A stretch of DNA of 64,000 nt from Mizuhopecten yessoensis. Lineage: Eukaryota. The position numbers were made by a program, and so were the translations under genes. This document shows positions 11,854-39,959 of this stretch, one piece after another; the stretch's first letter is position 1, and each line of letters starts with the position of its first letter. The stretch spans positions 406,426-470,425 of the forward strand of contig NW_018406816.1 in the NCBI RefSeq assembly GCF_002113885.1, written 5' to 3'. Under the pieces are notes generated by a model that saw nothing but the letters and a program-made list of their open reading frames with translations, made no database searches and was not told where the DNA came from.

Positions 11854-12894
11854 ATGAAGTTAAGTATAACGGTGATGTCGTTATGTCTTGCCCCAATAGT
11901 ATGGGGACAGATACTGAACCAGGGTGGCGATACGCTACAAGTCCATAGCAAAGCAATACTAGACTTACAGTTAAGGTTATCTACTGTAGAACATCTGCGC
12001 AATGAAGACGCACTACGCATCGATGATCTTGCAAAATGGCAGCAAATTGACCAGAGACGTATTGCCGACCTTGAGAAACAACAACAAATTGATCGCAGCC
12101 GTATTTCTGACCTTGTAAACAAAAGAGATGAGGACAATCAAACCATAGATGACCTTGAGAAAAAGCGACAAGATGATCAGCAACGTATTGGTGACCTTGA
12201 GAAACAACAACGTGTTTTTCAACGCCGTATTGCTGACATGGAGAAGAACGACACAGTTGGTGATCAACGTCGTTTAACCTACCCTAATAAACAGGAACCT
12301 CGTAGAAACTTTGACCCCCGTCAGAAATTGCCCTTTAACTCGTTTACCAACAGTACAACACATATGGCTGATGGAAGACGCGTGCCTAGCGTTAGGAAAA
12401 CGAGAAGTGTTGGACTCCATCCCAGAAATTCCGAGTTACCAAGTCCAACGTTGGAAACAAGTAACCAAAGCATTAAAAAACGTGTTTCCCCGAACAATCA
12501 AGGTATGGTGGCATTTTATGCTGTTCTAACACACACTATATCCCAATTGTCTGATCTTATGGAAATGCGTTTCGACCGTGTGATCACTAATATTGGGGGT
12601 TCTTAAAGTGGAAACACGGGTACTTTCACGTGTACACATGCGGGCGTGTATGTGTTCTCGTGGACAGTACACGTGAATTCTCGGTATATGTACACGGAAC
12701 TGGTAAAAAACGGTAACGTGATTGGGAGTGCGTTCTCTGGAGATTCCCAGTACAGCGGAATCGGAGGAGGATCCGTGGTTGTGCAACTGGACCAAGCAGA
12801 TGAGGTTTGGGTCCGAGTAAATTACCATAATCCTGGAAGTTACATTTACGCCGATAGGCATACAACAACATTCTCTGGATTTCTTCTCCAGTAG
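11854..12894 (+). pseudogene. C1q-domain-containing gene copy A with one premature stop (TAC>TAA at 12604-12606)
   Basis: Signal peptide MKLSITVMSLCLAPIVWG, coiled-coil repeats and gC1q start; GGS-stop-SGNTG where paralogs read GGSYSGNTG; the frame continues to FSGFLLQ-stop (346 aa if repaired). Confidence 0.9.
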
Positions 12895-14134
12895 CAGTGA
12901 TATATCGACTTACTTACCAGTAGCCACATAAAACACGTATCTCAGACGTTCATCACGCACATGTAAGTGTAGGGAAGACGCAATATGTTCTCTTGTTTTG
13001 TGTGGTTGATAAAAAGTTTAACAATATAACAGATTCATTGTTTTATTCTTATAAAAGCGTATACCATTAACTGATCGTACTTGATTGATTTTTAACACGG
13101 AAAGTTAGATTGCTACAGTGGTATGTCTCTATTTGATCAGAATGATATTTCTTTGTCTCTTTATGTTGTTTGTGTGTCTGTCTTTTCTGTTCTGTTACTA
13201 CTGTCAAATCATATCGTATAAAGATATGTTGTCCAAAAATGATTGGGCCGCTTTAAAGAGTATCATGACACTCCACTGTAGTCACGTTATACTGATACCG
13301 GGATAACCAGAAATACCCAGGGAGACACTACCAAAAGAACGAGTAGGACGGAAAGAACAGAAAAAGGAGGTTCAAAATATTACCATTGGAACAGTATCTC
13401 ATATTGGTTTCTTTAATGTTACCTTATAAGAAGATGAAAACAGATCATAAATATATAACATTTTTCATGGGTCCACACAAATACGAAGTCCTATGCGATA
13501 TCTTCTTTAGTTATATATACCGTAGAATGTGCACTTTTGTACATCAATCGTGAGCGAGAGAAATGGTCAAAGCTAGTCCGTATAATTGACAGACAACACG
13601 TTTTAGTTCAAAGTTAACGAATATTTATTCATTTCTAATAAAAACAAAAGATTTTAGCACAAAACATAGTATTACGCAAAATTTCAACGCCGAGCAACTT
13701 CAATCAGAAGAAAGAATTACAAATGCCGAGCCAAACATTGTAGTATAAAACGTCATCACATTTTTTATATAACAGCCTAGATGTGAATTTAGTAATTCTC
13801 TCGCAGTTAAATCCACTCGGAAACATCTAAAGGATATGTTAACAAAAGGCCAAGGGCCATGTAGTTCTCTGAGCATATGACTGAAGTGCTTGAAACTGCT
13901 GAATTCTGTTATCAGGTCCCGGAAGCAAGGAACCTTGCATCAATTATGTTATATTTTACAATGACATTTTGTTTTTTAAAATATCGAAATGTGTCTGTAA
14001 GACACGGATGCCAAGCTCCCTGTTTGGCGTATATACACACACAATGTAGTGGATGCTACGACCTATGTTACACACGCTGTGAATTGGCGTGTGTGATATT
14101 TTAAGCATGTCAACATAATTACAAGAGTACTAAT

Positions 14135-14283
14135 TAGGGGGTAGTACGTTGTTTTGAATGGCTATACTGGCGATTAGAACATGAAACTTGGGTTTGAACT
14201 CGAGACCGATAGGTCGAGAGTTTCAACCCAATTTCATGTTCTAATCGCCAGTAAAGACACGAAAAACAACGTACTATCCCCAT
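14135..14283. repeat. ~150-bp imperfect palindrome (probable transposon end)
   Basis: ggtagtacgttgtttt...ctggcgattagaacatgaaa mirrors tttcatgttctaatcgccag...aaaacaacgtactatcc around ctcgagaccgataggtcgagag. Confidence 0.7.
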
Positions 14284-14461
14284 TCTAACACACCTTAACA
14301 AATATACTACGCTAATATGTTTAAAAACATTGTATTTCCTTGTACAAAAGTACATTGTGACCTGAACTGGCGACGTGTCATTCTGCAGCGGACTGACCAA
14401 TCGGAAAGAAACTTTCAAAAATCGGTCATTTAGCCCCGCCCATACTGGCGAGCGCTCGACC

Positions 14462-15324
14462 TGTATGTTGACGAGGCGGAATATATGGATTGTTCGTGAA
14501 CGTCCTGTTACGAAAGTTTATACGACACATTCGGATTAATATTGACCAAGTTCCTACATTTCCATGTCAGTATGCATACCAATCGGTGTTTATCGACAAA
14601 ATCGATGATTATTTTTATAGATTTGTGAAAAGTTTTGTGTCAGTGCATAAGACACATGTGAAATGTTTGATTTGATTTCGGATCTAAATAGATGCCTTCA
14701 CACGGATAGAGGAACGTTTCAGTTATATATGGGGGTAAGAACAAGGAATGTGTTCTTTTAATTCATTCAACCAACGCATTTCATCGGTCGTTTCTGTTCT
14801 GTTGTCTACTAGCCTTATCAGCGGGATTTCGCTATGAGGCGAGCTTGACACCATATTGTTTTTGTTAGAAACGGGGCGTGGCTTAAGTGCGATGGGAGGA
14901 GCTTAACACGATTGATCATGATTCTATCGCAAGCTCGCCTCATAGCGCAATACCGCTGATAAGGCTAGTAGGCAACAGAACAGAAACGACCGATAAAATG
15001 CATTTGTTGAATGAATTAAAAAGTAAAAAGAACGCATTCCTTGTTCTTACCTCCATTTATTACTGAAACGTTCGTTCCATCCATGTAAAGGCATCTATTT
15101 AGATCCGAAATCAAATCAAACATTTCACATGTGTCGTATGCATTTACACAAAACTCTTCAAAAATCTATACAAATAATCATCGATTTTGTCGATAAGCAC
15201 CGATTGGTATACATACTGACATGGAAATGTAAGAACTTGTTCAATATTAATCCGAATGTGTCGTATAAACTTTGGTTACAGGACGTTCACGAACAATCCA
15301 AATATTCCGCCTCGTCAACATACA
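14462..15324. mobile_element. Foldback element with ~390-bp inverted arms and ~80-bp spacer
   Basis: 14462-14848 is the reverse complement of ~14930-15324 (tgtatgttgacgaggcggaatat / atattccgcctcgtcaacataca). Confidence 0.85.
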
Positions 15325-15659
15325 TTTTAATCCTTAAATAAATACTTTGTGAAATAATAAATTACATAATATTCTACCGGGGATAAGCGCACTCGCTAGA
15401 CAAAAAACATTTGAAACTATAGTAAAGTATTTGTAAATATATAATAACTGAAGTGACAATCAAACCGGTATTAAGACTCAAAAACATATGAAACTACAGC
15501 AAATTATTTACAAATTAAATCTTCAAATCAACACCCCTAAAACGTATAACAAAATATGATGTTCCAGAAAGGTACGTGGATTCTTGTTGACACAGATATA
15601 TGTCTGGTCTGTCAAAATGTGTAAGTCTAGTGTCAGGGCTAGAGAAACGCGGGCTAAAT

Positions 15660-16140
15660 GTCACTTATGTTTATCTTATCCTCGCCTGTTCTGTTTGTAA
15701 GGGCAGAACATGTGTCGCTGTTTCTCAAGATCATCAAGAAGTCGAGTTTTTTGCTGTTTCGCACAACCTTAATTTTAAGTACAATATTGCTATGCTATGG
15801 ACTTTTAGAGTATCACCACCCTGATCTTGATTCTCTTCCCCATATTATAGGGATAAGATAGAACGCAACCACCGTTATACCAAAATCATGTTTGCTTTTT
15901 AAATAGAAAAAGAAAACAAAATGGACAAAACTCCAGAAAATGTTCGGAAACGATATCCTTGCGTGGGGTCTTGATCAGTCTGATAATGCTGCCGTCACTG
16001 GTTTATTACAGGACACATACAAGTCTCTTACTGATAAGATAAAAAAAAAAACGAACATATATTACACATGGCAGTCTTTGATATATGTATACACAACAAC
16101 TGTTGGCGACTTCCAAATGGCAAAATGGTGAACATTCTAA
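15660..16140 (-). pseudogene. Inverted, decayed 5' remnant of a C1qDC paralog (copy F)
   Basis: The reverse strand carries the GATA module, 5'UTR and ATG (15889-15887). After a 1-nt frameshift it reads GITVVAFYLIPIIWEENQDQGGDTLKVHSIAILYLKLRL and later SALTNRTGEDKINISD, matching GGDTLQVHSKAILDLQLRL and SDLVNKRDEDNQTIDD; no gC1q. Confidence 0.8.
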
Positions 16141-17795
16141 ATTAATCAAATATAAATGAATCTGTACTTTGCAAACAATGACTTTTCTTGTTTCTTTTTG
16201 TGTTCTTCAAACAAAAATATATAAAAATATCTATAATGTAGACACAATTGTATAATTACAAATATTTTATAACTTTATAAATAAATAAATGTACCGAAAT
16301 AGTAAATCCTTCAAGAGCTCTGTTTATTCCTTCTCTGAGCTTCTTTGGTAGATTTAAGCTGCAAGCAGTCCTGATAATTTTAATGTTTTTTATTGTTCTT
16401 TTTAGATATCATAACATATTTTTTCCCTTTGTCGTAGGGAAACATGATAATTTGTTTCATTCAATAAATCATGTTTATGAAAGCAAAGCCTGTTGATGTA
16501 AATTTTCACTTTATATCACATTTTCTATGTCAAATTGCTATAAAATTATGATATTAAGAGGTATGTGATGAATTTGGAACCTAATAGATTGATCAGACTC
16601 GGTGATCAAATGTTATACTCAAGAGATCAACATCAAGGATCCTGTTTAAAAATACTTTTATCATTTTTTACCAATAACGGAATACTAAGCATAGATTCTC
16701 GATCACTTACAATAATATTCAACATTTGTATTGATGTGATATCACAATTACAGCCTTTTCAGTACAATTTGATCGAATAACACAGTTTTTAAATCTAAAA
16801 TATGTTTTGCTGGAAAGGAACTAGATATGTGTATTTTCTGCAATAGGGTAAAGAGCTGATCAGATCTGGTCAAATGAAATTGACCCCTTGGCCAACTTTC
16901 ATGATTTGAATTCAAGCATTTGTATTGTTTTAATTTAGCCAACGATTTTGCCAATAGCATTTTCAGTATTGTTATAACAATTGTGGTTATACAATGTATA
17001 TATATTGGTTACATTGTGCCATTGTTTTGTGCCATGAATATGTAAATTTTTAGTATTTATTATCTGCCCTTGGGTTTTGGTCATGTTTTAATCCATAGTT
17101 ACCAAAAGACTTGATACATTTTCTGAAATTATTATTTAGCAAAGATTGTATGATATGTTACATACTATATGTTCATTTATTAATTCTATTTTAAGGCTTT
17201 TGGTAGGCATATTTCAATTCTGTACCACTGAATAAAAACATATATATCTACGATGACTTGATTGGGGTCAGATGCTGTAGATGTACCCTGCATTTCCAAA
17301 TATACAATGAATTGTGATATACATGTATTACGATATTCTTTGAAAATTGGATTGGTGAAAATTCTTGTAATACCCACATATTATTATCAACCAAGCAAGT
17401 AAGCACATTGACATGTGGTAAGGGGGAGATAACTGACATCTTGTGAGGTTACACTATATCTAGCGAGAGATTAATCGTCAGATGTTTTCACTCATAATGG
17501 CATTGAAAACTGGTTTTGTATGCTTAGACGTAAATAATGAAAAATAGCATTATAGATCTGCAATTGTGTTAAAATTCATACATTAAAATCTCACGCTTTA
17601 TGGAATACAGATTTGGTAAATCAGTAAAAAAGTTTTAACAGTATCCTGTAAAATAATAGGTGATTGTTATACATGTCTTCCAATGTTTTTAGTATTTGGA
17701 GTAGGAAAAGTTTGTATTTGTATATATTCATGTTTGAAAAACAAATAAAAAAATAAAAAAGGAAAGTGTTTGTTTGTATAACACTACATATCTTT

Positions 17796-20140
17796 TTAGG
17801 TCACCTGAGCTTTGCTCAAGTGACCTATTCCAATCACTTTCCGTCCGTCGTCGTCCGTCGTGCGTCGTGCGTCGTGCGTCGTGCGTAAACTTTTTACATT
17901 ATCAACTTCTTCTCAAGAACCAGTGGATGGAAATTTTTCAAACTTGGTCAAAATCATCCTTGGTAGATGAGGCTACCAAATTGTAAAATTGGGATTCCTA
18001 CCCCAACCCTAGGGGCCAGGGCGGGGCCCAAAAGGGAAAAATTAACCAATTTTTCTAAAATCTTCTTCTCCTGACTCAGAGGTATTACAGTCATTTTCTC
18101 TGCATGGATGGAAAGATAATCAGGGGCTTATTTAAATTGTAAATTTCAGGCCCCCCGAGCTATCCGTTCTCCCTTGGGGAGGGGGTAAAATTTACTATAG
18201 TTTATATAGGGAAACAACACTTTTGGGTATATTTTGACAATTTTCTGTTGGAAATTATTTTTACTTTGTGAGAATTATCCTTGGAGGAGGAGGATGGTTT
18301 TAAATTGTAAAATTGGGATCCCTACCCTAACTCTGGGGGCCAGGGCGGGGCCCAAAAGGGAAAAATTAACCAATTTTTCTAAAATCTTCTTCTCCTGACT
18401 CAGAGGTATTCCAGTCATTTTCACTGCATGGATGGAAAGATAATCGGGGGCTTTATTTACATTGGAAATTTCAGGACCCCCGAGCTATCCGTTCTCCCTT
18501 GGGGAGGGGGGAAAGTTTACTATAGTTTATATAGGGAAACAACACTTTTGGGTATATTTTGACAATTTTCTGTTGGAAATTATTTTTACTTTGTGAGAAT
18601 TATCCTTGGAGGAGGAGGATGGTTTTAAATTGTAAAATTGGGATCCCTACCCCAACCCTGGGGGCCAGGGCGGGGCCCAAAAGGGAAAATTAGCCAATAT
18701 TTCAAAAATCTTCATCGCCAGCCTCAGAGGTATTACAGTCATTTTTTCTGCATGGATGGAAAGATCGTCAGGGGCTTTATTAAAACTGGTAATTTCAGGA
18801 CCCCCCAGCTTTCCGTTATCCCTTGGGGAGGGGGAAAAGTTTACTATAGTTTATATAGGGAAACAACACTTTTGGGTATATTTTGACAATTTTCTGTTGG
18901 AAATTATTTTTACTTTGTGAGAATTATCCTTGGAGGAGGAGGATGGTTTTAAATTGTAAAATTGGGATCCCTACCCTAACCCTGGGGGCCAGGGCGGGGC
19001 CCAAAAGGGAAAATTAGCCAATATTTCAAAAATCTTCATCTCCAGCCTCAGAGGTATTACAGTCATTTTTTCTGCATGGATGGAAAGATCGTCAGGGGCT
19101 TTATTAAAACTGGTAATTTCAGGACCCCCCAGCTTTCCGTTCTCCCTTGGGGAGGGGGAAAAGTTTACTATAGTTTATATAGGGAAACAACACTTTTGGG
19201 TATATTTTGACAATTTTTTGTTGGAAATTATTCTGACTTGGTGAGATTTATCTCTGAAAGAAGATGGTTTTAAATTGTAAAATTGGAATTCCTACCCCAA
19301 CCCTAGGGGCCAGGGCGGGGCCCAATAGGGAAAATTAGCCAATATTTCAAAAATCTTCTTCTCCAGACTCAGAGGTATAACAGTCATTTTCTCTGCATGG
19401 ATGGAAAGATCTTAAGGGGCTTTATTTAAATTGTCAATTTCAGGACCCCCGAGCTTTCCGTTCTCCCTTGGGAAGGGGGTAAAGTTAACTTTAGTTTATA
19501 TAGGGAAACAACACTTTTTGGTATATTTTGACAATTTTCTGTTGGAAATTATTCTTACTTGGTGAGAATTATCCTTGAAGGAAGATGGTTTTAAATTGTA
19601 AAATTGGGATTCCTACCCCAACCCTAGGGGCCAGGGCGGGGCCCCAAAGGGAAATTTAACCAATTTTTCAAAAATCTTCTTCTCCTGACTCAGAGCCCTA
19701 AATTACAGTCATTTTCTCTGCATGGATGGAAAGATCATCAGGGGCTTTATTTAAATTGTAAATTTCAGGACCCTCGAGCTATCCTTTCTCCCTCGGGGAG
19801 GGGGTAAAGTTTACTATAGTTTATATAGGGAAACAACACTTTTGGGTATATTTTGACAGTTTTCTGTTGGAAAATATTTTTACTTGGTCAGAATCATCTT
19901 TGGTGGATGACGATATCACATTGTAAACTTGGAATTCCTGCCCCATCCCCAGGGGTTAGAGCGGGGCCCCAAAAGGAACATTTACAAATATTTTAAAATT
20001 CTTATCCTTTAATGACATGACAAGTATTGTATTTCACTTAGTTTACATGCTGATTTCCACATCACATCTAAACAATAAAATTAAGCTACCAGTACCTATG
20101 ATATAACTCAGGTGACCGCTAAGGCCCTTGGGCCTCTTGT
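17796..20140 (+). mobile_element. Helentron-associated element (HINE) with ~6 x 323-bp internal tandem array
   Basis: 5' ttaggtcacctgag...ctcaagtgaccta, (cgtc/cgtg)n microsatellite, units at ~17981, 18305, 18630, 18954, 19275, 19596, 19921; 3' ctcaggtgacc, hairpin aggcccttgggcct and cttgtt. Inserted in a T run; the empty site is present in paralogs A and C. Confidence 0.85.
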
Positions 20141-20389
20141 TATTATATTAATTCAAAATATTGAATAATTTTACTATGCATTTTACCAACAGTTGGTACA
20201 CATGCGTCCAGGATTGTAACATGGCATATGTTTTTATCTTATCGGTAAACGTAGGTGCTATGAAGACCTGTGTGTGCCCTGTAAGGAACCAGTGACGGTA
20301 GCTGTATCGGAGTGATCAAGACGTTAAGACAGAATATCGTTTTCGAACATTGTCTGGAGTTTTGTCTGTTGATTTTCCCAAAAGGTGAC

Positions 20390-20898
20390 ATGAAGTTAGG
20401 AAAACGAGAAGTGTTGGACTCAATCCCAGAAATTCTGAGTTAGCAAGTCCAACGTTGGAAACAAGTAACCAAGGGATTATAAAACGTGTTTCCCCGAACA
20501 ATGAAGGTATGGTGGCATTTTATGCTTTTCTTTCTCATGATTACTCCTCGGTGGTTCATCTTATGGAAATACATTTCGACCGTGTGATAACTAATCTTGG
20601 GGGCTCTTACAGTGGAAACACGGGTACTTTCACATGTACACATGCGGGCGTGTATGCGTTTTCGTGGACCGTGCACGTTAGTCGTCGTTATATGTTCCCG
20701 GAACTAGTCAACAACGGTGTCGTTATTGGGACTGCGTTCTCTGGAGACTCGGAGTACAGCACAGGTGGGACAGGATCCGTGGTGGTGCATCTGGACCAAG
20801 GAGACGAAGTTTGGATCCGAGTAGGTGTAACTTATTCTGGAACTTACATAAGAGGCAAAAGCGGTACAACAACGTTTTCCGGATTTCTTCTCCAGTAG
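20390..20898 (+). pseudogene. C1qDC copy B: frameshifting deletion of signal peptide and coiled coil; gC1q ORF (20509-20898) still open
   Basis: ATGAAGTTA joins directly to GGAAAACGAGAAG (linker) through GTTA microhomology, deleting 532 bp relative to copy A. The ATG frame stops at 20443; the head MVAFYAFLSHD...FSGFLLQ has no stop. Confidence 0.8.
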
Positions 20899-23800
20899 CA
20901 TTGGTCTCTGGACTTGCTTACCAGTCCCCACACAAAACACGTATCTCAGACGTTAATCACTCACTTAATGCGATCATAGGGAAGACAGAAATACCAATCA
21001 GTTTATTCTCTTGTTTTGTGTGATTTATGATTTATAAAAAATGAACAATATGACAGACTTACTTGAGTTATAACATTTATTGATCGTACTTGACTCAATT
21101 TTAACATGGAAAGTTATATTGCTATAGTTGTATGTCTTTCCTTTAACGTTTATATTTCTTGATCGTTTTTGTTGTTTGTCCGTCTGCCTGTATGTCTGTC
21201 TGTTCTGTCACTTTCACATCATGTCGTATAAAGATGGCGTCTAAAAAGATTGGGCCACTTTAATGAATAGCAAGACACTCAACTTTAGTTACATTATACT
21301 GACACCGGGATAACCAGAAATACCTAAGGAGACACTAACGAAACGAACGAGTAGGAAGGAAAAAAGGGGGAAAAGCAGATGTTTTGGAACAGTTGCTCAT
21401 ATTGTTTTATTCAATTTTACCTCACAAGATGTTGAAAAAAACCTTTTTGCATGGGATCCACATTATTTAGATGTTCCATGCAATATTTTTGTACTTATTC
21501 ATACTCAATCTGTTTACTACTTAAGCAATAGTTATGATAACCTTTAAATGTACATCAATCACGAGTGAGAAATGGTCAAAGCTATTCCTTATAGACAGAC
21601 AACACGTTTTAGTTCAAAATTAACGAATATATTTTTTTTCTTCATAAAAACAACATGATTTAGCACAGTACATAACATAACGCTATAATTCCAACGCCGA
21701 GCAACTTCAATCGGAAGTAAGAATTACATATGCCGGGCCAAACATTGTGGTATAAAACGTCTTGTCTATTTTTAGGTTTTGACATGAGTACTGTGGAAAT
21801 AACCAAAACGGAGCGACATCCAGATTAGTTTGTTGAGTATATGTTATACGCTAAAAAGTAAGAGAAAGAAATCGCGAGGATAGAAGATATTGAGAGATTT
21901 AGAGTTTGGAGGGACCTGGCAAATTAAAATGTAACAGCCTAGATGTGATTTGACGAATCTCTCGCATATAAATCCAGTGGTTATCAAAAGTGCCTCATCA
22001 CAGGTTAACTTGTCAGCTTGAATTTATTTACCAAATTCTGTTATAAATGTCATATTGTTTAATTGGGGCTATCTTTCTTAAAGCAGATTTTCCCCAATGT
22101 GAATGAAAAGATGCCCTACAATAGCAACAAATTTGCGATGCTGTGCAGAAATAGCCAAAATATGGGTGTTTAGGACAGTTAGCATGCAGACATGAAAGCC
22201 TATGCATGTGACAAGCTAAAATTCCCTTTTTTACGAATGAACACTGTATGACAATGTTCAAACATTTCGAATATTTATTTGGTTTGGTGCATGCAGGTGT
22301 TTTTTTTTAAAGTTAAAGAGTATTTATTGGTAATTTCCTTACAAATGGCCAATTTGCAATCAAATAGCGCATAACACACGATATTCACGCATTTTATTAT
22401 GAAAATGTGGGTTTATGTCTCTCTTTGTAATGCCCTATCGCCTACACCAGTTATCGAATGAATTTGAAATTTCATATTTGTTTACTTCATTTATTCCAGA
22501 TTACGATTATAACAACTGTTCTTAATCCCCGATGAGGCAGGAAATGACCATTAACGCCCCTAGTCCTTTTCGCGCATTATCAAGTTTCAATAGATCAGCA
22601 CATTAATAAATTGGGGCTTACAGTTCATGCAATAGAAACCTATTTACACAAACTTTCAATTAGAGCAATCATAATTTAACACAAAGTTTAAAGTACAAAG
22701 AGTACTAAAATTGGAATACTTCTAAAAATTTGTACGTTTACAGTATAACAACGATAGTTACCAAACCGTCTTCCCAAAAGTTAGCATGGGCTGGTCTTAT
22801 CATATTGTGATATCTTATTGTTTAATTTAGTTGGTAGTTATAGTTGTCTGTATTCTTAACATATCATCAGTTTAGTGTGCCACGTTTTATAATTTGTCCT
22901 ATGTGACCTTGGGTTGACGACATGACTAGAATGGAGCATATATATCCGATCCTAAGTTTCTTAATGAAGTTAATTTGAATTTAAACTCTGTAAAAGTATC
23001 ATACTTTTTATGTACTACAATGTGTCTAACAAGTTTAAATATGAAAACACCATGTACACCAGGTAAGAAATTATATAGTCTACCCCACTTGATCTAGTCA
23101 CCCTCACGAGATCCATATCAATTCCTTCCCCCCCCNAAACACTTTACTGAGAGACACATTTCCAGCATTAATGTTAATTTCCTTTGAATTCGTTATTTTG
23201 GCAAAAACACTTTGGAGTTAAGCGCAGTTGAAATCTTGCGTTTTCCCCACAATTTATGTGCACAAAATTTCTTTCGTATCATCCCTTGAGATATTCGTGT
23301 ACAATCCCAGATATAAAGCTGTGATATATCTTTAATGAAAATATTTTGGACGTGGTGTTGAAATCTTGTATTTCTCACTTTAGTTATGTGGTTTAATTCT
23401 TTCAATTCATACTCTTACAGATAAAACCCCAGAAATATACTGTAATCACTTTCTTCAATAAATCAATCACATTATTTGAATTTAATCCATTTCAATACTG
23501 AATGCTGATGTTCAAAATGTACTGCACAGGGACTGTTGGACGACATTATTCAAATGAGACTAAATTCTACTCGGGCATATTTCACACGCCTGTAATGCAT
23601 GCACTTGTACAAAAGCATGCAAAGTATGCTAAAGGACAAAACTGTCCTTTATCGTATCAATAGCCTTCTAGGTTGATTGCACATACTGAACAGATATTGA
23701 AACTGTCCAATATCAACGAAAGAGGTTGCGTGTTTTAAGTAAGATATAAGCCCCAAACTGTCTATTATGTGAAATATTAGACAGTTTGAGGCGCGTAGCG

Positions 23801-24988
23801 CCGAATACTGTCCAATATTTTACATAATAGACAGTTTGAGGCTTATATCCTTTACTGACTTGATTGAGGACATATGAGGGATGTAGATGGTGAACATATT
23901 GACTGTTTTCTGAAAAATGGTCCAGCACAAATAAAATCACCAAGTGAAATCATTGACATTGGGTATAAATTATAATCATTATTTTTACATTTTAAAAGTT
24001 ATCACTTGGTATTTGTTCTGTATAAAAAGTTACCCTTATATATTCTGGTCTATGATCCACAGAAATCATGATGAGATTGAATTTATCATGTTCATATTAA
24101 GATCGCTTGATGTGGTTACTTCAACAACATTTTAAGAAAAGAAAAAAAGTTCATCATTAAAGTTTGCTAAACTGATGGTCACTTTTGGTATTTTCTACCT
24201 ACCCCGGTAAATGTGGAGGAAAACAAGGAGAAAAAATATCCTGCATTTACAGAAATACAATGTATTGTGATAAATTAAAATATTCTCTGAAAATTTGAAT
24301 GGTAAAAATTCTTGTCATACCCACAAGTTATTATCAACCAAGCAAGTAAGCATATTGACATGAGGTAAGGGGGAGATAACTGTTATCTGGTGAGGTTACA
24401 CTATATCTAGATTGATCGTCAGATGCTTTCAGCCATAATAGCTTTGAAAACTGGTTTTGTTTGCTTAGACGTAAATAATGAAAAACAGCGTTATAGATCT
24501 GAAATTGTGTTAAAATTCATACATTAAAATCTCACGTTTTATGGAATACAGATTTAGAAAATCAGTAAAAAAAACTTTTAACAGCATCCTATTAAATAAT
24601 AGGTGATTGTTATATATGTCTTCCAATGTTTTTAGTATTTTGTGTAGGAAAAGTATATATTTGTATATATTCATGTTTGAAAAACAAATAAACAAATTAT
24701 TTTTTGAAAGTATTTCTTTGTATAACACTACATATCTTTTTGTTATATTAATTCAAAATATCGAATAATTTTACCCCGACCAAGTCGCCAACAGTTGGTA
24801 CACATGCGTCGAGGATTGTAAAATATGTTAGATTTTATCTTATCGGTAAATGTAGGTGCTATAAAGACCTGTGTGCCCTGTAAGGAACCCGTGTCGGTAG
24901 CAGTATCGGAGTGATCAAGACGTTAAGACAGAATATCGTTTCCGAACATTGTCTGGAGTGTTGTCTGTTGATTTTTCTAAAACGAGAC

Positions 24989-26059
24989 ATGAAGTTAAGT
25001 ATAACGGTGATGTCGTTATGTTTTGTCCCAGTAGTATTGGGAAAGATACTGAACCAAGGTGGCGATACTCTACAAGTCCATAGCAAAGCCATACTGGACT
25101 TACAATTACGGTTATCTACTGTAGAACATCTGCGCAATGAAGACGCACTACGCATCGCTGATCTTGCAAAATGGCAGCAATTTGACCAGAGACGTATTGC
25201 AGATCTTGAAAAACAACAACAATTTGATCGCAGCCGTATTTCTGACCTTGTAAACAAAAGAGATGAGGACAATCGAACTATAGCTGACTTTGAGAAAAAG
25301 CGGCAACGTTCTGCTGACCTTGAGAAAAAGCGACAAAATGACCGGCAACGAATTGCTGACCTTGAGAAACAGCAACGTGTTTTTCAACGCCGTATTGCTG
25401 ACCTGGAGAAGAACCCCAGAGATGGTGATCAACGTCGTCTAACCTACCCTCAGAAACAGGAACTTCGTAAAAACTTGGACTCCCATCAGAAATTTCCCTT
25501 TAACTCGTTAACCAACAGTACAACCCGTATGGTCGATGGAAGACGCATGCCCAGCCTTAGGAAATTGAGACGTTTTGGACCCAGTCCCAGAAATTCTGAG
25601 TTACCAAGTCCAACGTTGGAAACAAGTGACCGAGGCATTAAAAAACGTGTTTCATCAGAAAATGAAAGAATGGTCGCATTTAGTGCTGCCCTATCGCATG
25701 ATTACTCCTCTCTGACTAATCTTATGGAAATACATTTTGACCATGTGATCACTAACATTGGGGGTTCTTACAGTGGAAACACAGGCACCTTCACATGTAC
25801 ACATGCGGGCGTGTATGTGTTCTCGTGGACAGTGCACGCGCACTTGCGTTATATGTACACGGAACTAGTCAAAAACGGTGTTGTGGTTGGAAATGCGTTT
25901 TCTGGAGATTCTCAGTACAGTGGGACCGGTGGAGGATCCTTGGTGGTACAGTTGGACCAAGGGGACGAAGTTTGGGTGCGAGTAAGTGAACATTACTCTG
26001 GAACTCACATTATCGGTAGTAGAGGTACGACTATGTTCTCTGGATTTCTTCTCCAGTAG
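24989..26059 (+). CDS. Secreted C1q-domain-containing protein, coiled-coil type, copy C (356 aa)
   Basis: Signal peptide MKLSITVMSLCFVPVVLG, RIADLEK repeats, gC1q motifs VAFSA, FDHVITNIGGSY, GTFTCTHAGVYVFSW, VQLDQGDEVWV, FSGFLL; single uninterrupted ORF. Confidence 0.93.
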   Translation: MKLSITVMSLCFVPVVLGKILNQGGDTLQVHSKAILDLQLRLSTVEHLRNEDALRIADLAKWQQFDQRRIADLEKQQQFDRSRISDLVNKRDEDNRTIADFEKKRQRSADLEKKRQNDRQRIADLEKQQRVFQRRIADLEKNPRDGDQRRLTYPQKQELRKNLDSHQKFPFNSLTNSTTRMVDGRRMPSLRKLRRFGPSPRNSELPSPTLETSDRGIKKRVSSENERMVAFSAALSHDYSSLTNLMEIHFDHVITNIGGSYSGNTGTFTCTHAGVYVFSWTVHAHLRYMYTELVKNGVVVGNAFSGDSQYSGTGGGSLVVQLDQGDEVWVRVSEHYSGTHIIGSRGTTMFSGFLLQ

Positions 26060-26387: not shown

Positions 26388-26995
26388 ACCATCTCGTCCA
26401 GGACTATTTCCCCCGGCTTCGCATCGGGAAATAGTCCTGGCCTCGGGGGGATCATAAACTTGCTATATCCCGAAATACCCATACTTCAACTGTTTTATTA
26501 TACCGATACAAACACTCCCTTACAATATTCTAAATATTATTAGACAACAAATGTTCCATGTCCGCGATATCCAAACCCTTTTCAGTGAAGTAGCTAGAGA
26601 GCAAAGTAACGTATGCCTGTACTATTTTTTGTGTGTTCCAACTGTCTTTTGCCTCCAATATGTCCGACAACTCGCTCTTGTCCAACACAGAAAACCTGGG
26701 GGTCGCCATTTCTGTCGTCGTCTGTCAACAACAATGCGAGGTGAAGCTCGGTCCAGAAAGTACCGGCTCCGCTGGCCGGAAATAGCCGACGTAATTCGAT
26801 TGCGTTGATTGGTCAATATTCGGTCAGACCCCGCCCACGACGTAACTCAATTTCCGGCATTTTCCGAGGGAAATAGTTTTAAAACTATCGCACCCCTCCA
26901 GACGAACTATTTCCCTGGCATGCAGTTAGAGGGGAAATAGCTTGTTTATGTGGTTACTTTTGTATAGTGTAAAATAAGTAGAGGTATAATAAAAT
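26388..26995. mobile_element. Unclassified non-autonomous element with terminal hairpin
   Basis: Hairpin ggactatttcccccggcttcgcatcgggaaatagtcc; inverted pair ttttattatacc (~26493) / ggtataataaaa (~26982); interrupts the 3' flank shared with paralogs. Confidence 0.5.
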
Positions 26996-27652
26996 ATCTT
27001 AATCTAGACACAGCAGCATGCCATTCAGTGCTATCACGATAAAGTGAAACAAGCTAACCAGCATTGCCTATGGCGACACCACCGAAAGGAGATTGTTGAA
27101 AGGAAAGGAAAGAAAAGAAAGAGATTCCAAATGCTGCAATGGGGACTGCATCTCGTTTTGGTTTCTCCAGTGTCGTGATACAAATATCAGTTCTACATCC
27201 GTGGAGTATGTATGACCTATGTAGCGGTGAGGAGAAGGTATGTGTATCGGAGGGGAGGACCCTTGATTTTCAAAGATGATGTACTCCTAATAAGATACTT
27301 TCAATGTAAATATTCATCACCATGCGGTAATGTAGTAATCGTGTATTCTCTACACTGTATTGTTTATGAGAATAAAACAATTGTCATTGTCATTGTCATT
27401 GCAAACTGTAGTAGCCCAGAAATGATATATCCACATCAACCAATACAACCGAGGTTATTTCTCTAGTTTATTCAATTATACAAAATATCACTGATGTGTT
27501 TTAGGTAAAATGCCAGAAAAAAATTTGGAAAGGTCCATGGGCAACTATTTTTTTCAGTCCTCAGTATTGGCTCAATTTGCCTATCATATGGTTATTTGGA
27601 AGAAAGTATAACACATTTCTTAATATTACTGTAGTATATTATGAATTTTATA

Positions 27653-28481
27653 AGCTCACCTGGTCCGAAGGACCAAGGTTAGCTTATGCCATCCCGTTGC
27701 GTCCGTCGTCCGTCGTCCATACGTCCGTCCGTCCGTCAAAAATTTCTTTAAACGACTTCTTCTACTTAACCACTAATTGGAATTCAACTAATTTTGACTG
27801 GAAGCATCCCTAGGTAGTGGGAATGCAAAATCATACAAATGTCGGGGCTGACCCCCAGGGGGCAGACGGGCGGGGCCAAAAGGGGGCAATTTGGCTATAC
27901 TGCTTTAAGCGACTTCTTCTCTGAAACTAAGAGATGGATATCAACCATATTAGACTGGAAGCATCCCTAGGTGGTGGAAATTCAAAATTGTACAAATAAT
28001 GTGGCTAACCCCCCAGGGGGCTTAGGGTCGGGGCCAAAAGGGGGCAATTTGGCTATACTGCTACAAACGACTTCTTCTGTAGAACTGTGCACTGGATATC
28101 AATCATATTTGATCAAAAGCATTCATGGGAGGCAGGAATTCAAAATTGTACAAATGGTGGGGCTGACCCCCAAGGGGGCTGAGGGTGGGGCCAAAAGGGG
28201 GCAATTTGGCTATATTGCTATAAACGACTTCTTCTGTAGAACTATGCAATGTATATTGATCATATTTGGTCGGAAGCATTCATGGGAGGCAGGGATTCAA
28301 AATTGTACAAATGTACACACCATAACTATACATGGAATTGCTGGGCATGAACAGTCTAATACAGATATGCTACAAGGATTGGCCTTGGGGTCTGGCATAT
28401 TCCCTTGATCTCATTTGGAGAATATTTTGCCATGATTGCTTAGGTATCCAGGTGAGCGATAAGGCCCTCTGGGCCTCTTGT
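27653..28481 (+). mobile_element. HINE with ~155-bp internal tandem repeats
   Basis: agctcacctggtccgaaggaccaaggttagct 5' end, (cgtc)n, repeats with ggggccaaaagggggcaatttggcta, 3' ccaggtgagc and hairpin aggccctctgggcct followed by cttgt. Confidence 0.85.
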
Positions 28482-29975: not shown

Positions 29976-31100
29976 ATGAAGTTAAGTATAACGTTGATTG
30001 CGTTATGTTTTGTCCCGATAGTATGGGGACAGATACTGAACCAGGGTGGCGATACGCTACAAGTCCATAGTAAAGCAATACTGGACTTACAGTTAAGGTT
30101 ATCTACTGTAGAACATTTGCGCAATGAAGACGAACTACGTATCGCTGATCTTGCAAAACGGCAGCTAATTGACCAGAGACGTATCGCCGACCTTGAGGAA
30201 CAACAACAAATTGATGACAGCCGTATTTCTGATCTTGTAAACAAAAGAGATGAGGACAATCGAACTATTGCTGACCTTGAGAAAAACCGACAAGACGATC
30301 AGCAACGTATTGCTGACCTTGAGAAAAAGCGACAAAATGACCAGCAACGCGTTGCTGACCTTGAGAAAAAGCGACAGAATGACCAGCAACGCATTGCTGA
30401 CCTTGATAAACAGCAACGTGTTTTTGAACACCGGATTGCTGACCTAGAGAAGAACCCAAGAGATGGTGATCAGCGTCGTTTAACCAACACTCAAAATCAG
30501 CAACATCGTAGACACGTGGTCTCCCATCATAGATTTCCTTTTAACTCGTTAACCAACAGTACAACACATATGGCTGATGGAAGACGCATGCCTAGCGTTA
30601 GGAAAACGAGAAGTGTTGGAACGTATCCCGGAAATTCTGAGTTAGCAGGTCCAACGTTGGAAACAATTAACCAAGGGATCAAAAAACGTGTTTCCACGGA
30701 CAATCAAGGTATGGTGGCATTTTATGCTGTTCTAACGCACAGTATCAAGCCAGTCGCTAATCTTATTGAAATACGTTTCGACCGTGTAATCACTAATATT
30801 GGGGGTTCCTACAGTGGAAATACGGGTACTTTCACGTGCACACACGCGGGCGTGTATGTGTTCTCGTGGACAGTGCATGTAGATCCACGGTACATGTACA
30901 CGGAACTAGTAAAAAACGGAGTAATGGTTGGAAGTGCGTTCTCTGGAGATTCTCCGTACAGCGGAATCGGAGGAGGAACCGTGGTTGTGCAGCTGGACCA
31001 AGGAGACGAAGTTTGGGTCCGGGTAGAATTCCATGTGTCTGGAAGTTACATTTACGTCGATAGGCATACAACAACGTTCTCTGGATTTCTTCTCCAGTAG
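29976..31100 (+). CDS. Secreted C1q-domain-containing protein, coiled-coil type, copy D (374 aa)
   Basis: Signal peptide MKLSITLIALCFVPIVWG, eight RIADLEK-type repeat starts, complete gC1q ending FSGFLLQ; single ORF. Confidence 0.93.
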   Translation: MKLSITLIALCFVPIVWGQILNQGGDTLQVHSKAILDLQLRLSTVEHLRNEDELRIADLAKRQLIDQRRIADLEEQQQIDDSRISDLVNKRDEDNRTIADLEKNRQDDQQRIADLEKKRQNDQQRVADLEKKRQNDQQRIADLDKQQRVFEHRIADLEKNPRDGDQRRLTNTQNQQHRRHVVSHHRFPFNSLTNSTTHMADGRRMPSVRKTRSVGTYPGNSELAGPTLETINQGIKKRVSTDNQGMVAFYAVLTHSIKPVANLIEIRFDRVITNIGGSYSGNTGTFTCTHAGVYVFSWTVHVDPRYMYTELVKNGVMVGSAFSGDSPYSGIGGGTVVVQLDQGDEVWVRVEFHVSGSYIYVDRHTTTFSGFLLQ

Positions 31101-32329
31101 CAGTGATCTATGGACTTACTTAACAGTAGCCACATAAACACGCATCTCACGCACACGCGAGTGTAGATAAGACGCAATATACAAACTGTGTTGTTTATAA
31201 AGAAAATAACAACATAACAGACTCTCATTGCGCTATCCATATAAAAACGTATACCATTTACTGATCGTACTTGTTTCATTTTTTTTACACGGAAAGTTAG
31301 ATTGCTACAGTGGTATGTCTTTATTTGATCAGAGTGATATTTTTTTGTCTTTTTGTTGTTTGTGTGTCTGTCTTTTCTGTTCTGTTACTACCGTCACATC
31401 ATATCGTATAAAGATATGGTGTTCGAAAATGATTGGGCCGCTATAAAGAGTATCATTACACTCCACTGTAGTCACGTTATACTGATACCGGGATAATCAG
31501 AAATACCTAGGGAGACATTAACGAACAAAACGAGTAGGAAGGAGAGAAAAGAAAAAAGGAAATTCAAATTATTACCATCGGAACAGTTGCTTATATTTGT
31601 TTTTTCCAATGTTACCTTATAAGAAGATGCAAAAAGATGATAAATAGATAACTTTTGCATGGGATCCACAGTATTAAGAAATCCCATGTAATCTTTCTTT
31701 TATTAATTCATATTCAATTAGTTTACTACTTAAGAAGTAACTGTGATAACTTTAGAGTAAACGATATATTCTTATATCGAAGAAACTGTGTGCACTCACT
31801 TGTGTACATCAATCCCAACGAGAAAATAGTCAAACATGTTTTAGTTCAAAGTTAACGAATATAAATTCATTTCTAAAAAAACAAAAGAATTTAGCACGAA
31901 ACATAGCATTACGCCATAATTTCAACGCCGAGCAACTTCAATCAGAAGAGAGAATTGCAAATACCGGGCCAAACATTGTAGTATACAACGTCATGACTAT
32001 TTTGATATATAACCCTAGATGTGAGTTTAGTAAGCCTCTCGCAGTTAAATCCAGTCGTTATCTACGGAAACATCTAAAGGATATGTTAAAAATTCTTCGC
32101 AAATTTTCTGTCATTACAACTTGTAGTAAATGGTACACTTTTCACTTCAAATCAATCATATATTTCCATTTCCATTGTACAGTTTCTAGACAAACAATTT
32201 GTTATAACCCAATGGTAGCAAGAACAACTGCACGCTAATTCACGAATGGTTTTCGATTGATGTTCGCCCCCTGACAGCTGGTTACAATAGAAAGCAAGAT
32301 CCACACATATAACAGGGATGGAATAGTCA

Positions 32330-34310
32330 AACACCTTCAAAAACTTCTTCTGAATAACTAAGAGGCCAAGAGTGATGATATCTGGACAGTAGGTACACCT
32401 TCAAAAACTTCTTCTGAATAACTAAGAGGCCAAGAGTGATGATATCTGGACAGTAAGTACCTGGCATGAAGCGATATGAAATTTCCTCAAATATATGATC
32501 TTGGCCTACTTTCAAGATTACAAGAGTCAAATGTTTTAAAAACCTTTATACAACTTCTACTGAATAACTAAAAGACCTAGAGCAATGATATTTGGCCAGT
32601 AGGTACCGCGGGAGAAGTGCTATAAAGTTTCCTCAAATAAATGACCTTGGCCTACTTTCAACGTCACACGCGTCAAATATGTAAACACTTTTTAATACCT
32701 TCTTCTGAATAATTAGGAGGCCCAGAGTGATGATACATACTTGACCAGTAGATATCTTAGACGGGGTGCTTTAAGATTTTATAAAATAAATTACCTTGAC
32801 CTACTTTAAAGGTCACAGGCATCAAAAATATAGACAAAATGAACATTTTTTTCTAATTAACAAGGAGGCCCAGGGCGATGATAATTGCCCAGTAGGTACC
32901 TGGCATGGAGTGCTTTAAATATTCTTTAAATTAATGACCTTTTCCTACTTTTAAGGTCACAGAAATCGAATATGTAAATACTTTTTAAAACCTTCCTCTG
33001 AATAACTGGGAGTCCTAGAGTGATAATACTTGGCCAGTAGATATCTGAGACGGTGTGCTATAAAATTTTCAAAAATAAATGGCCTAGACCTACTTTAAAG
33101 GTCACATGCATCAAATATAATTATAACAAACCCTTTAAATAACTTTTTTCTGACTACCAGGAGGCACAGGGATATGATAGTTGGCCAGTAGGTACCTGGT
33201 ACGGAGTGTTAAGGTCACAGAAATCGAATATGTAAATACTTTTTAAAACCTTCCTCTGAATAACTGGGAGTCCTAGAGTGATAATACTTGGCCAGTAGAT
33301 ATCTGAGACGGTGTGCTATAAAATTTTCAAAAATAAATGGCCTAGACCTACTTTAAAGGTCACATGCATCAAATATAATTATAACAAACCCTTTAAATAA
33401 CTTTTTTCTGACTACCAGGAGGCACAGGGATATGATAGTTGGCCAGTAGGTACCTGGTACGGAGTTTTAAGGTCACAGAAATCGAATATGTAAATACTTT
33501 TTAAAACCTTCCTCTGAATAACTGGGAGTCCTAGAGTGATAATACTTGGCCAGTAGATATCTGAGACGGTGTGCTATAAGATTTTCAAAAATAAATGGCC
33601 TAGACCTACTTTAAAGGTCACATGCATCAAATATAATTATAACAAACCCTTTAAATAACTTTTTTCTGACTACCAGGAGGCACAGGGATATGATAGTTGG
33701 CCAGTAGGTACCTGGTACGGAGTGTTATATAAAGTTTCCTCAAACTACCATGACCTACTTCCAAGTTCAAAGGGGTCAAATATGTAAAAACCTTTAAACA
33801 ACTTTTTCTGTGTTACCAGGGCCCGTATTCATGAAACCGTTCTCATGCTTAAGAATGATTTCTGTGCTCAAGCCAACTTTCTTTTGGTAACTCCCTTAAA
33901 TCATTTAACATGTTAAAAAAGTCAAGTGTAAACATTGGAAACAGTTATCGTCTTAAAGTCTTTCCAAATTGCTTGCATATCATTGACTAAATATGATTTC
34001 TTTCAATTTATCACTGGCAAAAGAAATTGGACTTGGACACAGTATCTGAGTTTGAGCATGAGAACGGTTTCATGAATATGGGCCCAGGAGACCCCAGAGG
34101 CCCCGGAGGCCCTGGAGGCCCTGGGTGATTTGATTTGACCAGTAGCATGTTGGAATAGAGTTGTATAAAGTTTCATTATGTCTGTGACATTCTTAAGGCA
34201 AAAGAGACTCAATGTATGGAAATATTTGCAAAATTACTTTTATTGAGAACATTTTCCAATTGTTGCTCAAATATCCAGGCGAGCGATACAGGCCATCTGG
34301 GCCATTTGTT
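32330..34310 (+). mobile_element. 5'-truncated HINE with ~120-130-bp tandem units and a recent 258-bp x3 amplification
   Basis: tgacct.gacctactttcaaggtcac units; near-identical blocks at 32953, 33211, 33469; 3' end ccaggcgagcgatacaggccatctgggccatttgtt. Same family at 63138-63714. Confidence 0.75.
33820..34084. mobile_element. 265-bp PIF/Harbinger-like MITE nested in the HINE
   Basis: TIRs ggcccgtattcatgaaaccgttctcatgct / agcatgagaacggtttcatgaatatgggcc; 3-bp TSD CAG (33817-33819 and 34085-34087). Confidence 0.75.
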
Positions 34311-35054
34311 TGTTTTTGTTTGACAAAATCAAAAGCTCTTTACACGACTCCTAGCGGCTGATACGAGTAGACTTGTCTGATGTTTTTACTGAAAATCAAA
34401 ATAACCGCGCGGCAACGTAACGGTAAACTTGACAGGTTTCGGGGTTTGTATGTAGCTAATCTGTAATCGGGCATTATCATAACGCGATAAATCATGTTTT
34501 TTATTGCAAAACCAAAACGAGCTGTTGTCCATCATGCAGCACTTTTGAACCCCTTTATTTCTTTTCTTTATCTCCTGTTCGTTTTATATATATATATATA
34601 TTTTTTTATCTCTCTGTCAGTATAATGTGACCAGATGGGATGACATGCTATCGGTTCAGGGTAATGACATTTAAATGACAGATAATGGCACTCTTAAACG
34701 GTCCAATCATTTGCAGACACCGTTTTTACATGACATGATGGGTACAACGAGTAGAGATATAAAGAGACTGATAGACAGAGTGATAGAGACAAAAGGAGAC
34801 AGAGAAATATCACTATGATAAAATAGCGTTTCATATCTAAATACAAATATAAAGTACAAACAAGTTTATCTTGTCGCATACTAAATTAAGAACAACACAA
34901 AGGTTGGCTACCTTGTCCTCGTTTTTATAAATCACACAAAACATGAAAACAAAGTAATTGGTATATTTCGTCTTCTCTACACTCACATGTGATAGGTTAA
35001 CATCTGAGATACGTGCTGTATGTGGCTACTGGTAAGTAAATCCAGAAATCATTG

Positions 35055-36095
35055 CTATTGGAGAAGAAATCCGGAAAACATTGTCGTACGCGTATGGACG
35101 AAAATTTGAGTTCCAGATGTATGTTCACCTAGTCGGACCCAAACTTCGTCTCCTTGGTCCAGCTGCACAACCACGGATCCTCCTCCGATTCCGCTGAACT
35201 GGGAATCTCCAGAGAACGCATTCCCAATCACGTTACCGTTTTTGACTAGTTCCGTGTACATATACCGAGGATTCACGTGTACTGTCCACGAGAACACATA
35301 CACGCCCGCATGTGTACACGTGAAAGTACCCGTGTTTCCACTGTAAGAACCACCAAGATTGGTGACCACTTGGTCGAAATGTATTTCCATAAGTTTAGCC
35401 ACCTCCGTGTAACTGTGCGTTAGGACAGCATAAAAAGCGACCAAACGTCCGTTGTCTGAGGAAACACGTTTTTTAATGCCTTGGTTGCTTGTTTCCAACG
35501 TTGGACTTGGTAACGCAGAATCTCTGGGATTGAGTCCAAAACTTCTCGTTTTCCTAACGCTAGCCATGCGTCTTCCATCGACCATGCGGGTTGTTCTGTT
35601 GGTAAACGAGTTAAAGGCAATTTTTTGACTGGGGGCCAAGTTTCTACGAGGTTCCTGTTTCTGAGGGTAGGTTAAACGACGTTGATCACCAACTCTGGGG
35701 TTCTTTTCCAGGTAGGCAATACGGCGTTGAAAAACACGTTGCTGTTTCTCAAGGTCAGCAATACGTTGATGGTCATCTTGTCGCTTTTTCTCAAGGTCAG
35801 CTATAGTTCGATTGTCCTCATCTCTTTTGTTGACAAAGTCAGAAATACGGTTGTCGTCAATTTGATGTTGTTTCTCAAGGTCGGCAATACGTCGTTTGTC
35901 AATTTGTTGCTGTTTCGAAAGATCAGCGATGCGCAGTGCGTCTTCATTGCGCAGATGTTCTACAGTAGATAACCTTAACTGTAAGTCCAGTATTGCTTTG
36001 CTATGGACTTGTAGCGTATCGCCACCCTGGTTCAGTATCTGTCCCCATACCATTGGGACAAGACATAACGCAATCAACGTTATACTTAACTTCAT
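35055..36095 (-). CDS. Secreted C1q-domain-containing protein, coiled-coil type, copy E (346 aa)
   Basis: Signal peptide MKLSITLIALCLVPMVWG from CAT at 36093-36095, coiled-coil repeats, complete gC1q; inverted relative to copies A-D. Confidence 0.93.
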   Translation of the reverse strand: MKLSITLIALCLVPMVWGQILNQGGDTLQVHSKAILDLQLRLSTVEHLRNEDALRIADLSKQQQIDKRRIADLEKQHQIDDNRISDFVNKRDEDNRTIADLEKKRQDDHQRIADLEKQQRVFQRRIAYLEKNPRVGDQRRLTYPQKQEPRRNLAPSQKIAFNSFTNRTTRMVDGRRMASVRKTRSFGLNPRDSALPSPTLETSNQGIKKRVSSDNGRLVAFYAVLTHSYTEVAKLMEIHFDQVVTNLGGSYSGNTGTFTCTHAGVYVFSWTVHVNPRYMYTELVKNGNVIGNAFSGDSQFSGIGGGSVVVQLDQGDEVWVRLGEHTSGTQIFVHTRTTMFSGFLLQ

Positions 36096-39461: not shown

Positions 39462-39639
39462 ATAGCGGTCACACTAATTTGCGCCATAGGAGATTTTGCA
39501 CGCCATAGCAAAATGTGAGTGTTTAATCCACAAAATATTTCGATTTTTCCATTGGTATACTCATTTAACATGTTTTGGTAAAGTATCATTTAAAAAAAAT
39601 GTGTACTTTGTTAAAAAATCGATCTTGATTACGAAGCAC

Positions 39640-39950: not shown

Positions 39951-39959
39951 ATAATAATA

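Follow-up and report, generated by a model that had tools for sequence, protein, structure and literature searches.

Bivalves carry hundreds of genes for C1q-domain-containing (C1qDC) proteins, and a stretch of 64,000 nucleotides from the scallop Mizuhopecten yessoensis (contig NW_018406816.1, positions 406,426 to 470,425; hereafter the window) holds a cluster of such genes at window positions 11854-36095. The C1q heads encoded there differ from one another in a few short segments, and the locus raises the question of whether these differences form a recognition repertoire that is kept diverse by selection. A first-pass annotation of the sequence had proposed this, likening four segments of the head to the complementarity-determining regions (CDRs) of antibodies. 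The answer favoured here, with a rough probability of 0.55, is that secreted type II C1qDC genes form a tandem cluster evolving by birth and death, and that stalks have been homogenised, heads are older and divergent, and loops have occasionally been shuffled between copies.

Layout of the cluster

Five genes with a C1q head and one headless remnant were located by a six-frame motif search, self-BLAST and a listing of open reading frames, and no further C1q heads were found in the 64-kb window by tblastn or with a hidden Markov model (HMM). The six copies are the following:

11854-12894, plus strand: copy A, with putative signal peptide, coiled coil, linker and a gC1q head containing an in-frame stop; probable pseudogene
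20390-20898, plus strand: copy B, probable pseudogene; open head frame at 20509-20898, without signal peptide
24989-26059, plus strand: copy C, intact single reading frame of 356 amino acids; head at 25670-26056
29976-31100, plus strand: copy D, intact single reading frame of 374 amino acids; head at 30711-31097
35055-36095, minus strand: copy E, intact single reading frame of 346 amino acids; head at 35058-35444; inverted relative to A-D
15765-16233, minus strand: copy F, decayed remnant of a sixth copy (self-BLAST, alignment, tblastn)

The first-pass annotation had placed five heads here, A to D on the plus strand and E on the minus strand, and all of them are present; its 20 quoted segment sequences all match, and its assignment to the C1qDC family agrees with the Pfam C1q profile (B, C, D and E score 92.8-97.7 bits, where the cut-off is 23.7, with one C1q stretch per protein) and with the match to the gC1q fold described below. 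Only C, D and E are intact. Each runs from a hydrophobic N-terminus through a coiled coil of 14-residue repeats and a linker of ~86 residues with basic sites to a head of 129 residues, and the three heads are 76-78% identical to one another. The hydrophobic N-terminus, ~18 residues long in A, C, D and E, was judged by eye and is taken as a putative signal peptide. The coiled coil was recognised by sequence pattern, its 14-residue (42-bp) repeats showing heptad spacing and no Gly-X-Y run. With a predicted coiled coil, not collagen, before a single head, the genes fit the sC1q-like type II class of the Gerdol scheme.

The number of 42-bp repeats (window 30267-30414 in D, with matching stretches in A, C and E) varies among the copies and among scallop relatives, D having two extra ones, and stalk length is by this repeat count a second variable feature of the cluster. 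Just ahead of the head, A, C, D and E carry basic sites (RKTR or RKLR, and KKR). In these linkers (e.g. window 25555-25650) the basic sites and an N-glycosylation motif are kept amid otherwise fast-changing sequence, which suggests that the head may be cleaved from the stalk at the basic sites. The duplication units reach several kb upstream of the genes (window 8161-10560 compared with 16318-17285 and 22017-24195). Assembly gaps at 6661-7534 and 10582-11068 adjoin or fall within the unit of A, so that additional copies or a local misassembly are possible there.

The remaining copies have decayed in different ways. Copy A is interrupted at one position:

12604-12606, plus strand: in-frame stop TAA at head codon 34 of copy A (motif search, translation)

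This stop falls inside the GGSYSGN motif, and A also carries G98A at a glycine that is invariant in the comparison alignment. Copy B has lost ~532 bp directly after its start codon, at a 4-base microhomology, and with them its signal peptide and coiled coil; the original start codon and the head are in different frames, and the framework has acquired 7 private replacements against 3 silent changes. Taken together, private framework replacements (including the stop) and silent changes stand at 10:6 in A and B, compared with 7:20 in C, D and E (p = 0.026). The stop in A may have its source in an assembly error, but the excess of private replacements fits loss of function better than a single base-calling error, and A and B are probable pseudogenes. 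Copy F consists of the upstream region and the start of the signal-peptide sequence only, is frameshifted and has no head. Of the five members of the germline repertoire envisaged by the first-pass annotation, two are broken.

Fold of the heads and location of the variable positions

An AlphaFold model of head C was obtained from an alignment of 58 sequences with a predicted local distance difference test (pLDDT) score of 97.3. Its strands lie at residues 3-7, 25-30, 40-42, 47-58, 62-68, 71-78, 85-95, 100-108, 113-115 and 122-127, and its closest solved fold is the C1q domain of Caprin-2 (Z 21.3, root-mean-square deviation 1.2, 125 aligned residues), the nearest solved folds overall being Caprin-2, C1QL and cerebellin. 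Head C is thus modelled as the ten-strand jelly-roll gC1q fold. By model and alignment, the four segments correspond to the following loops (A, B, C and D on the plus strand, E on the minus strand):

Segment 1, A-A' loop: C 25697-25723, A 12532-12558, B 20536-20562, D 30738-30764 (plus); E 35391-35417 (minus)
Segment 2, C-D loop: C 25838-25849, A 12673-12684, B 20677-20688, D 30879-30890 (plus); E 35265-35276 (minus)
Segment 3, E-F loop: C 25913-25930, A 12748-12765, B 20752-20769, D 30954-30971 (plus); E 35184-35201 (minus)
Segment 4, end of strand G and G-H loop: C 25985-26026, A 12820-12861, B 20824-20865, D 31026-31067 (plus); E 35088-35129 (minus)

Successive strands alternate in direction, so the four loops would share the end of the fold away from the termini, which corresponds to the tip of the trimer. 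From the secondary structure and the known strand order of gC1q domains, the four segments would lie together at this tip. The first-pass annotation had claimed a single ligand-binding surface; the common location at one end of the fold stands, while a single surface is deduced from strand order.

The tip loops, defined from the head C model, comprise 41 positions. Across the five copies 27 of these are variable. Of the 88 positions elsewhere 25 vary (p = 9e-5 for the contrast), and the base loops have a single variable position out of 19; among the intact copies C, D and E alone the corresponding counts are 24/41, 16/88 and 0/19. Amino-acid variation is concentrated in the tip loops, beyond chance. 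Segments 1 and 4 hold most of the change (7/9 and 10/14 positions variable among C, D and E), and segment 3 varies only mildly (three of its seven positions, 82-88), so that the earlier picture of variation confined mainly to four segments is right for the tip as a whole but overdrawn for segment 3. The framework was likewise described as nearly invariant, which does not agree with the 26 variable positions counted outside the segments (one of them, position 82, belongs to segment 3) or with the TAA that interrupts GGSYSGN in A.

Tip positions are also the most variable ones in 44 distant family members (entropy 2.62 compared with 1.78-1.80 elsewhere; Spearman 0.44). Amid variable neighbours, the tip residues H10, R60, D80, S81, G111 and I114 are fixed. 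The Asp at head position 80 in the E-F loop (e.g. window 25907-25909) does not vary among the five copies and is shared by 6 of 7 near relatives; its location presumably resembles the calcium-binding region of other gC1q trimers, and I take it to be a candidate calcium ligand. Trimer formation is expected of the gC1q family. A prediction of a mixed C/D/E trimer, made without alignments, scored 0.31 against a mark of 0.34, and gives no evidence either way.

Divergence of stalks, heads and flanks

The segments differ at 0.37 of nucleotides, compared with 0.17 in the proximal 5' flank (0.10-0.13 among A-D) and 0.26 in the 3' flank. The first-pass annotation had observed that the segments look more diverged than the flanks, and this is correct, but it is no sign of selection, given that the silent sites of the head differ at a proportion (pS) of 0.34, near the level of the segments. 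At codons with an invariant amino acid, silent change was found at 42/82 codons in the head and 36/140 in the 5' half (p = 1.5e-4). This excess persists in the framework alone (34/67) and in C, D and E alone, and its direction is the same in all six pairs. Silent divergence in the head is therefore about twice that of the 5' half, which would make the heads about twice as old as the stalks and means that the flanks are no fair neutral clock for the heads. The linker, with a nonsynonymous divergence (dN) of 0.16 and a synonymous divergence (dS) of 0.17, looks unconstrained, so the low divergence of the 5' half is not mere silent-site constraint. CpG content was rejected as a cause of the silent excess (49 compared with 55 per kb). 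An additional peak of silent divergence in the tip loops (maximum-likelihood dS about 1.0-1.1) was also rejected, because codons with an invariant amino acid show none.

In protein trees, the N-terminal parts of A, C, D and E form a tight clade (99/98) with an identity of 0.80 within the clade and 0.39 to other scallops. The heads are not resolved from the heads of other scallop genera in these trees, and tip-loop identity is 0.56 among the copies and 0.49 to other genera. The heads seem to have escaped the homogenisation of the 5' half, which lends indirect support to the view of the first-pass annotation.

Exchange between copies

Comparison of the copies by alignment and permutation revealed one tract shared between A and E:

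12598-12816, plus strand: tract in A matching E, head codons 32-104
35133-35351, minus strand: tract in E matching A, head codons 32-104

Inside the tract 10 of 219 bp differ between the two copies, and outside it 47 of 168 bp. None of 20000 codon permutations, restricted to polymorphic columns, was as extreme (p < 1e-4), and A-E was the one pair of ten that was significant after correction. The tract spans the C-D and E-F loops; it starts past the A-A' loop and stops just short of the G-H loop. Inside it, the distance to D is 0.116 for E and 0.122 for A, and the distance between E and D outside it is 0.21-0.24. These distances hint at a donor from the A lineage, and E may tentatively be regarded as the recipient of a tract from that lineage.

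Other comparisons gave a mixed outcome. Copy A stands close to B upstream, with a difference of 6% over 514 bp, and also in the linker, whereas its head and 3' flank resemble those of D, and the informative sites of A, C, D and E fall into blocks, with 17 pattern changes over 48 thinned sites (p = 5e-5). A block test of all five copies was not significant once adjacent sites were thinned (p = 0.17-0.21), and longest-run tests in the manner of GENECONV gave weak results, the best corrected p being 0.044 (A-D), with 0.086-0.10 for A-E. A candidate D-E tract at codons 84-103 (p = 0.011, uncorrected) is not claimed. Mosaic tracts between paralogues are present in the cluster.

Tests of selection

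Codon models were fitted to the five sequences with an implementation of my own (F3x4 frequencies, naive empirical Bayes) and not with codeml or MEME. By pairwise counts, dN/dS was 0.16 in the framework (in round terms about 0.2) and 0.91 in the segments; the head framework is under purifying selection and the tip loops change at about the silent rate. The plain M1a/M2a and M7/M8 comparisons were both significant (p ~0.001), with a signal that came from 3-5 codons at a ratio of 27-39, and M1a/M2a remained so when the head was split into three parts, each with its own tree (p = 0.008). Allowing double changes weakened the M1a/M2a result to p = 0.05-0.07, and allowing double and triple changes abolished it (p = 1.0). 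For C, D and E alone, p rose from 0.0009 in the plain test to 0.20 with multi-base changes.

With sites fixed in advance, dN/dS of the four segments was 1.30 (p = 0.16), or 1.06 (p = 0.77) with multi-base changes, and the proposal of diversifying selection with a segment dN/dS above 1 finds no backing here. Segment 4 alone, which was picked for being variable, gave 1.95 (p = 0.027), or 1.56 (p = 0.16) with multi-base changes. The multi-hit test kept the signal in 45/52 simulations under the fitted model and in 24/29 simulations in which 15% of sites had their ratio set to 3, while the plain test was falsely positive in 9/35 neutral multi-base simulations, one of which reached the observed value of 13.7. 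After the multi-hit models, the segment trees and the simulations, positive selection as called by the plain site models was set aside as unproven. The apparent triple changes may stem from conversion over short tracts, local errors of alignment or selected changes that struck repeatedly, so that positive selection is plausible but not proven.

Relatives and comparable systems

A protein search returned 18 matches, four from the window and 14 named ones, all of the latter from Ylistrum, Pecten or Argopecten; none of five candidates for head-length relatives passed. The pectinid C1qDC subfamily to which these matches belong (Ylistrum LOC132561993 and LOC132561047, Pecten 'otolin-1-like' and Argopecten proteins) has the same architecture as the window copies, and its six closest members are 40-51% identical to them overall and 61-74% in the head, with the same segments variable. 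It differs in that the window stalks form a clade of their own and that no one-to-one orthology of heads is resolved.

In sC1q-like clusters of Crassostrea virginica, each cluster was reported to have 4-11 sites under episodic positive selection, set on a conserved fold and more often in the C-terminal part of the domain, and unequal crossing-over was proposed (Gerdol, Greco and Pallavicini 2019, PMC6835236). The scallop cluster is like the type II clusters of that species in combining a putative signal peptide, a coiled coil and one head in tandem paralogues with few hypervariable sites on a conserved fold (PMC6835236). The locus-level pattern that the first-pass annotation had singled out as notable is in this respect a further case of the published oyster pattern. 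Unlike the six-gene oyster example, which has an intron, the scallop copies are single uninterrupted frames (PMC6835236). The scallop selection signal was lost under a multi-hit model, whereas the available part of the oyster study names no such correction and no recombination screen. Neither an exchange tract inside the head nor an age contrast between stalk and head was found for C1qDC in the open-access literature, which leaves most subscription journals outside its coverage, and the same literature yielded no paper on gene conversion or paralogue recombination in C1qDC genes. The available texts further report C1qDC genes in hemizygous regions of bivalve genomes (bioRxiv 10.1101/2020.09.15.298695) and selection in oyster Toll-like receptors, with nothing added there on C1qDC loops (PMC8678459).

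A jelly roll of ten strands, the strands conserved and the loops variable, is common to the scallop heads and vertebrate gC1q domains (C1q, C1QL1-3, cerebellin, Caprin-2; PMC3342031), but the scallop copies have a coiled-coil and not a collagen stalk and belong to a recent lineage-specific expansion. Further afield, genes of the major histocompatibility complex (MHC), plant resistance (R) genes and red/green opsins share with this cluster mosaic paralogues, pseudogenes within the cluster, and low divergence in one part combined with high divergence in the presumed functional part (PMC3924837). Those cases concern unrelated proteins, and the scallop cluster differs from them in having one well-supported tract and a step in divergence, not a sharp peak. 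The likeness to antibody CDRs is that copies differ in several loops sharing one end of a beta-sandwich. Unlike antibodies and other somatic receptors, the scallop copies are complete germline single-frame genes without gene segments, with three intact members in the one assembly considered, and the label 'CDR-like' was an overstatement, as nothing indicates somatic or programmed diversification.

Weighing the explanations

In the favoured reading of a birth-and-death cluster, unequal crossing-over and gene conversion would keep the 5' half (upstream region, signal peptide and stalk) alike, and old head lineages would stay distinct, probably since heads with unlike tip loops have unlike ligands. 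Conversion events that span the A-A' and G-H loops would probably not be retained, and occasional exchange inside the head would recombine loops into new sets. Proteins of this family form trimers by way of coil and head and are soluble, lectin-like molecules that work in recognition or as opsonins. In this reading the locus holds a small germline repertoire, whose members owe their distinctness to divergence and not to any excess of replacements that has been demonstrated; where conversion is at work, a local rise in divergence has been described as a mark of selection that keeps copies different (PMC3924837).

Several points weigh against this reading. No test robustly puts dN/dS above 1, and silent change is not higher in the tip loops (8/15) than in the framework (34/67). 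The distal 3' flank is also diverged (0.18-0.24), which makes the pattern a step and not a peak on the head, and such a step could be neutral history. The five heads are neither established as monophyletic nor excluded from being so (approximately unbiased (AU) test, p = 0.36), and diverged loops could block conversion mechanically, without selection. C1qDC proteins, moreover, reportedly have roles outside immunity as well, an example being a pearl-oyster C1qDC in shell formation.

Neutral drift on a constrained fold, with tolerant tip loops, redundant copies and a difference between 5' half and head that reflects the chance history of conversion, is unlikely, though the most probable of the rivals. 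A segment dN/dS indistinguishable from 1, the high variability of the same positions in the 44 distant family members, the generality of conserved strands and variable loops among gC1q domains (PMC3342031), the death of three copies out of six and the false positives of the plain test under neutral multi-base simulation all fit drift. It fares less well with the observed value of 13.7, matched just once in those 35 simulations, and with a fitted triple-change rate that lacks a matching double-change rate, an unusual outcome of plain mutation; the doubled silent divergence of the heads calls for an explanation, and the six fixed tip residues argue for some constraint on the loops. Strong diversifying selection on four CDR-like loops forming one binding surface, as first proposed, is improbable, even though the plain site models favour it for all five copies, for three trees and for C, D and E alone, sites 13, 14, 59 and 109 fall in the segments, segment 4 is nominally elevated on its own, and selected sites in the oyster clusters are commoner in the C-terminal part of the domain (PMC6835236). 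The ratio of 27-39 at so few codons is implausible, the signal vanished with multi-base changes in a test that retained power, and the elevation of segment 4, itself chosen for variability, shrank in the same way. Site 71, called under the one-tree model, sits at a base turn and is accounted for by the A-E tract. C1q binds ligands through its tip and equator (PMC3342031) and C1ql3 and Cbln1 bind through different surfaces (PMC12048575); with gC1q ligands bound at tip, equator and grooves, the tip need not be the binding site.

A role outside immunity, either in shell or extracellular matrix or as signalling heads released at basic sites like cerebellin, with loops that tune partner binding, is highly improbable. 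The shell-formation role reported for a pearl-oyster C1qDC would fit it, as would the basic sites conserved ahead of the head in A, C, D and E, a KR pair at the same place in most scallop relatives, and the closeness of the fold to Caprin-2, C1QL and cerebellin. The fold neighbours, however, mirror which structures have been solved and not function; a recognition family is the better match for rapid gene turnover, pseudogenes and mosaic copies; and most studied bivalve C1qDC proteins are lectin-like (PMC6835236, PMC10672478). A bolder version of the birth-and-death reading, which is rather unlikely, would make the cluster a germline repertoire that works by loop shuffling. Stalks and upstream regions would be alike for co-expression and co-assembly, possibly into mixed trimers; the heads would be ancient, some as old as the split of the scallop genera, and kept distinct by selection acting at the A-A' and G-H loops; and broken copies would persist as donors while conversion moved the C-D and E-F loops, as in MHC and plant R clusters, where pseudogenes do act as conversion donors (PMC3924837).

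Neighbouring features in the window

Other features of the window are listed here by position:

170-553, plus strand: reading frame or last exon of the FkbM-type methyltransferase family (Pfam Methyltransf_21, E 2e-10)
14137-14281: palindromic element of ~145 bp between A and F
14462-15324: palindromic element of ~860 bp between A and F, 86% arm identity
17800-20130, 27600-28480, 32330-34310, 39637-39954, 45575-46700 and 63209-63715: interspersed elements with internal tandem arrays (periods ~324, 157, 145 and 258 bp)
44871-45329, plus strand: frame matching the N-terminal part of Mediator subunit 24 (Pfam Med24_N, E 1e-7)

The two palindromes look like fold-back or miniature inverted-repeat transposons. 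The tandem-array elements presumably resemble the repeat-containing MITEs (miniature inverted-repeat transposable elements) of bivalves, and one of them lies ~260 bp upstream of the start codon of B and splits B from its distal upstream region. The frame at 44871-45329 is probably an exon of a neighbouring MED24 gene, and would be a useful anchor for locating the orthologous cluster.

Implications

The cluster reveals no new kind of system. What it does show is that gene conversion and multi-base changes can mislead tests of selection on C1qDC clusters, a point of relevance to claims already published for the family. Microbe-binding sites of bivalve C1qDC proteins were called virtually unknown in 2019 (PMC6835236), and the three intact heads of this locus, 76-78% identical and differing mostly in four loops at the predicted tip, are a handy natural panel for loop-swap binding tests.

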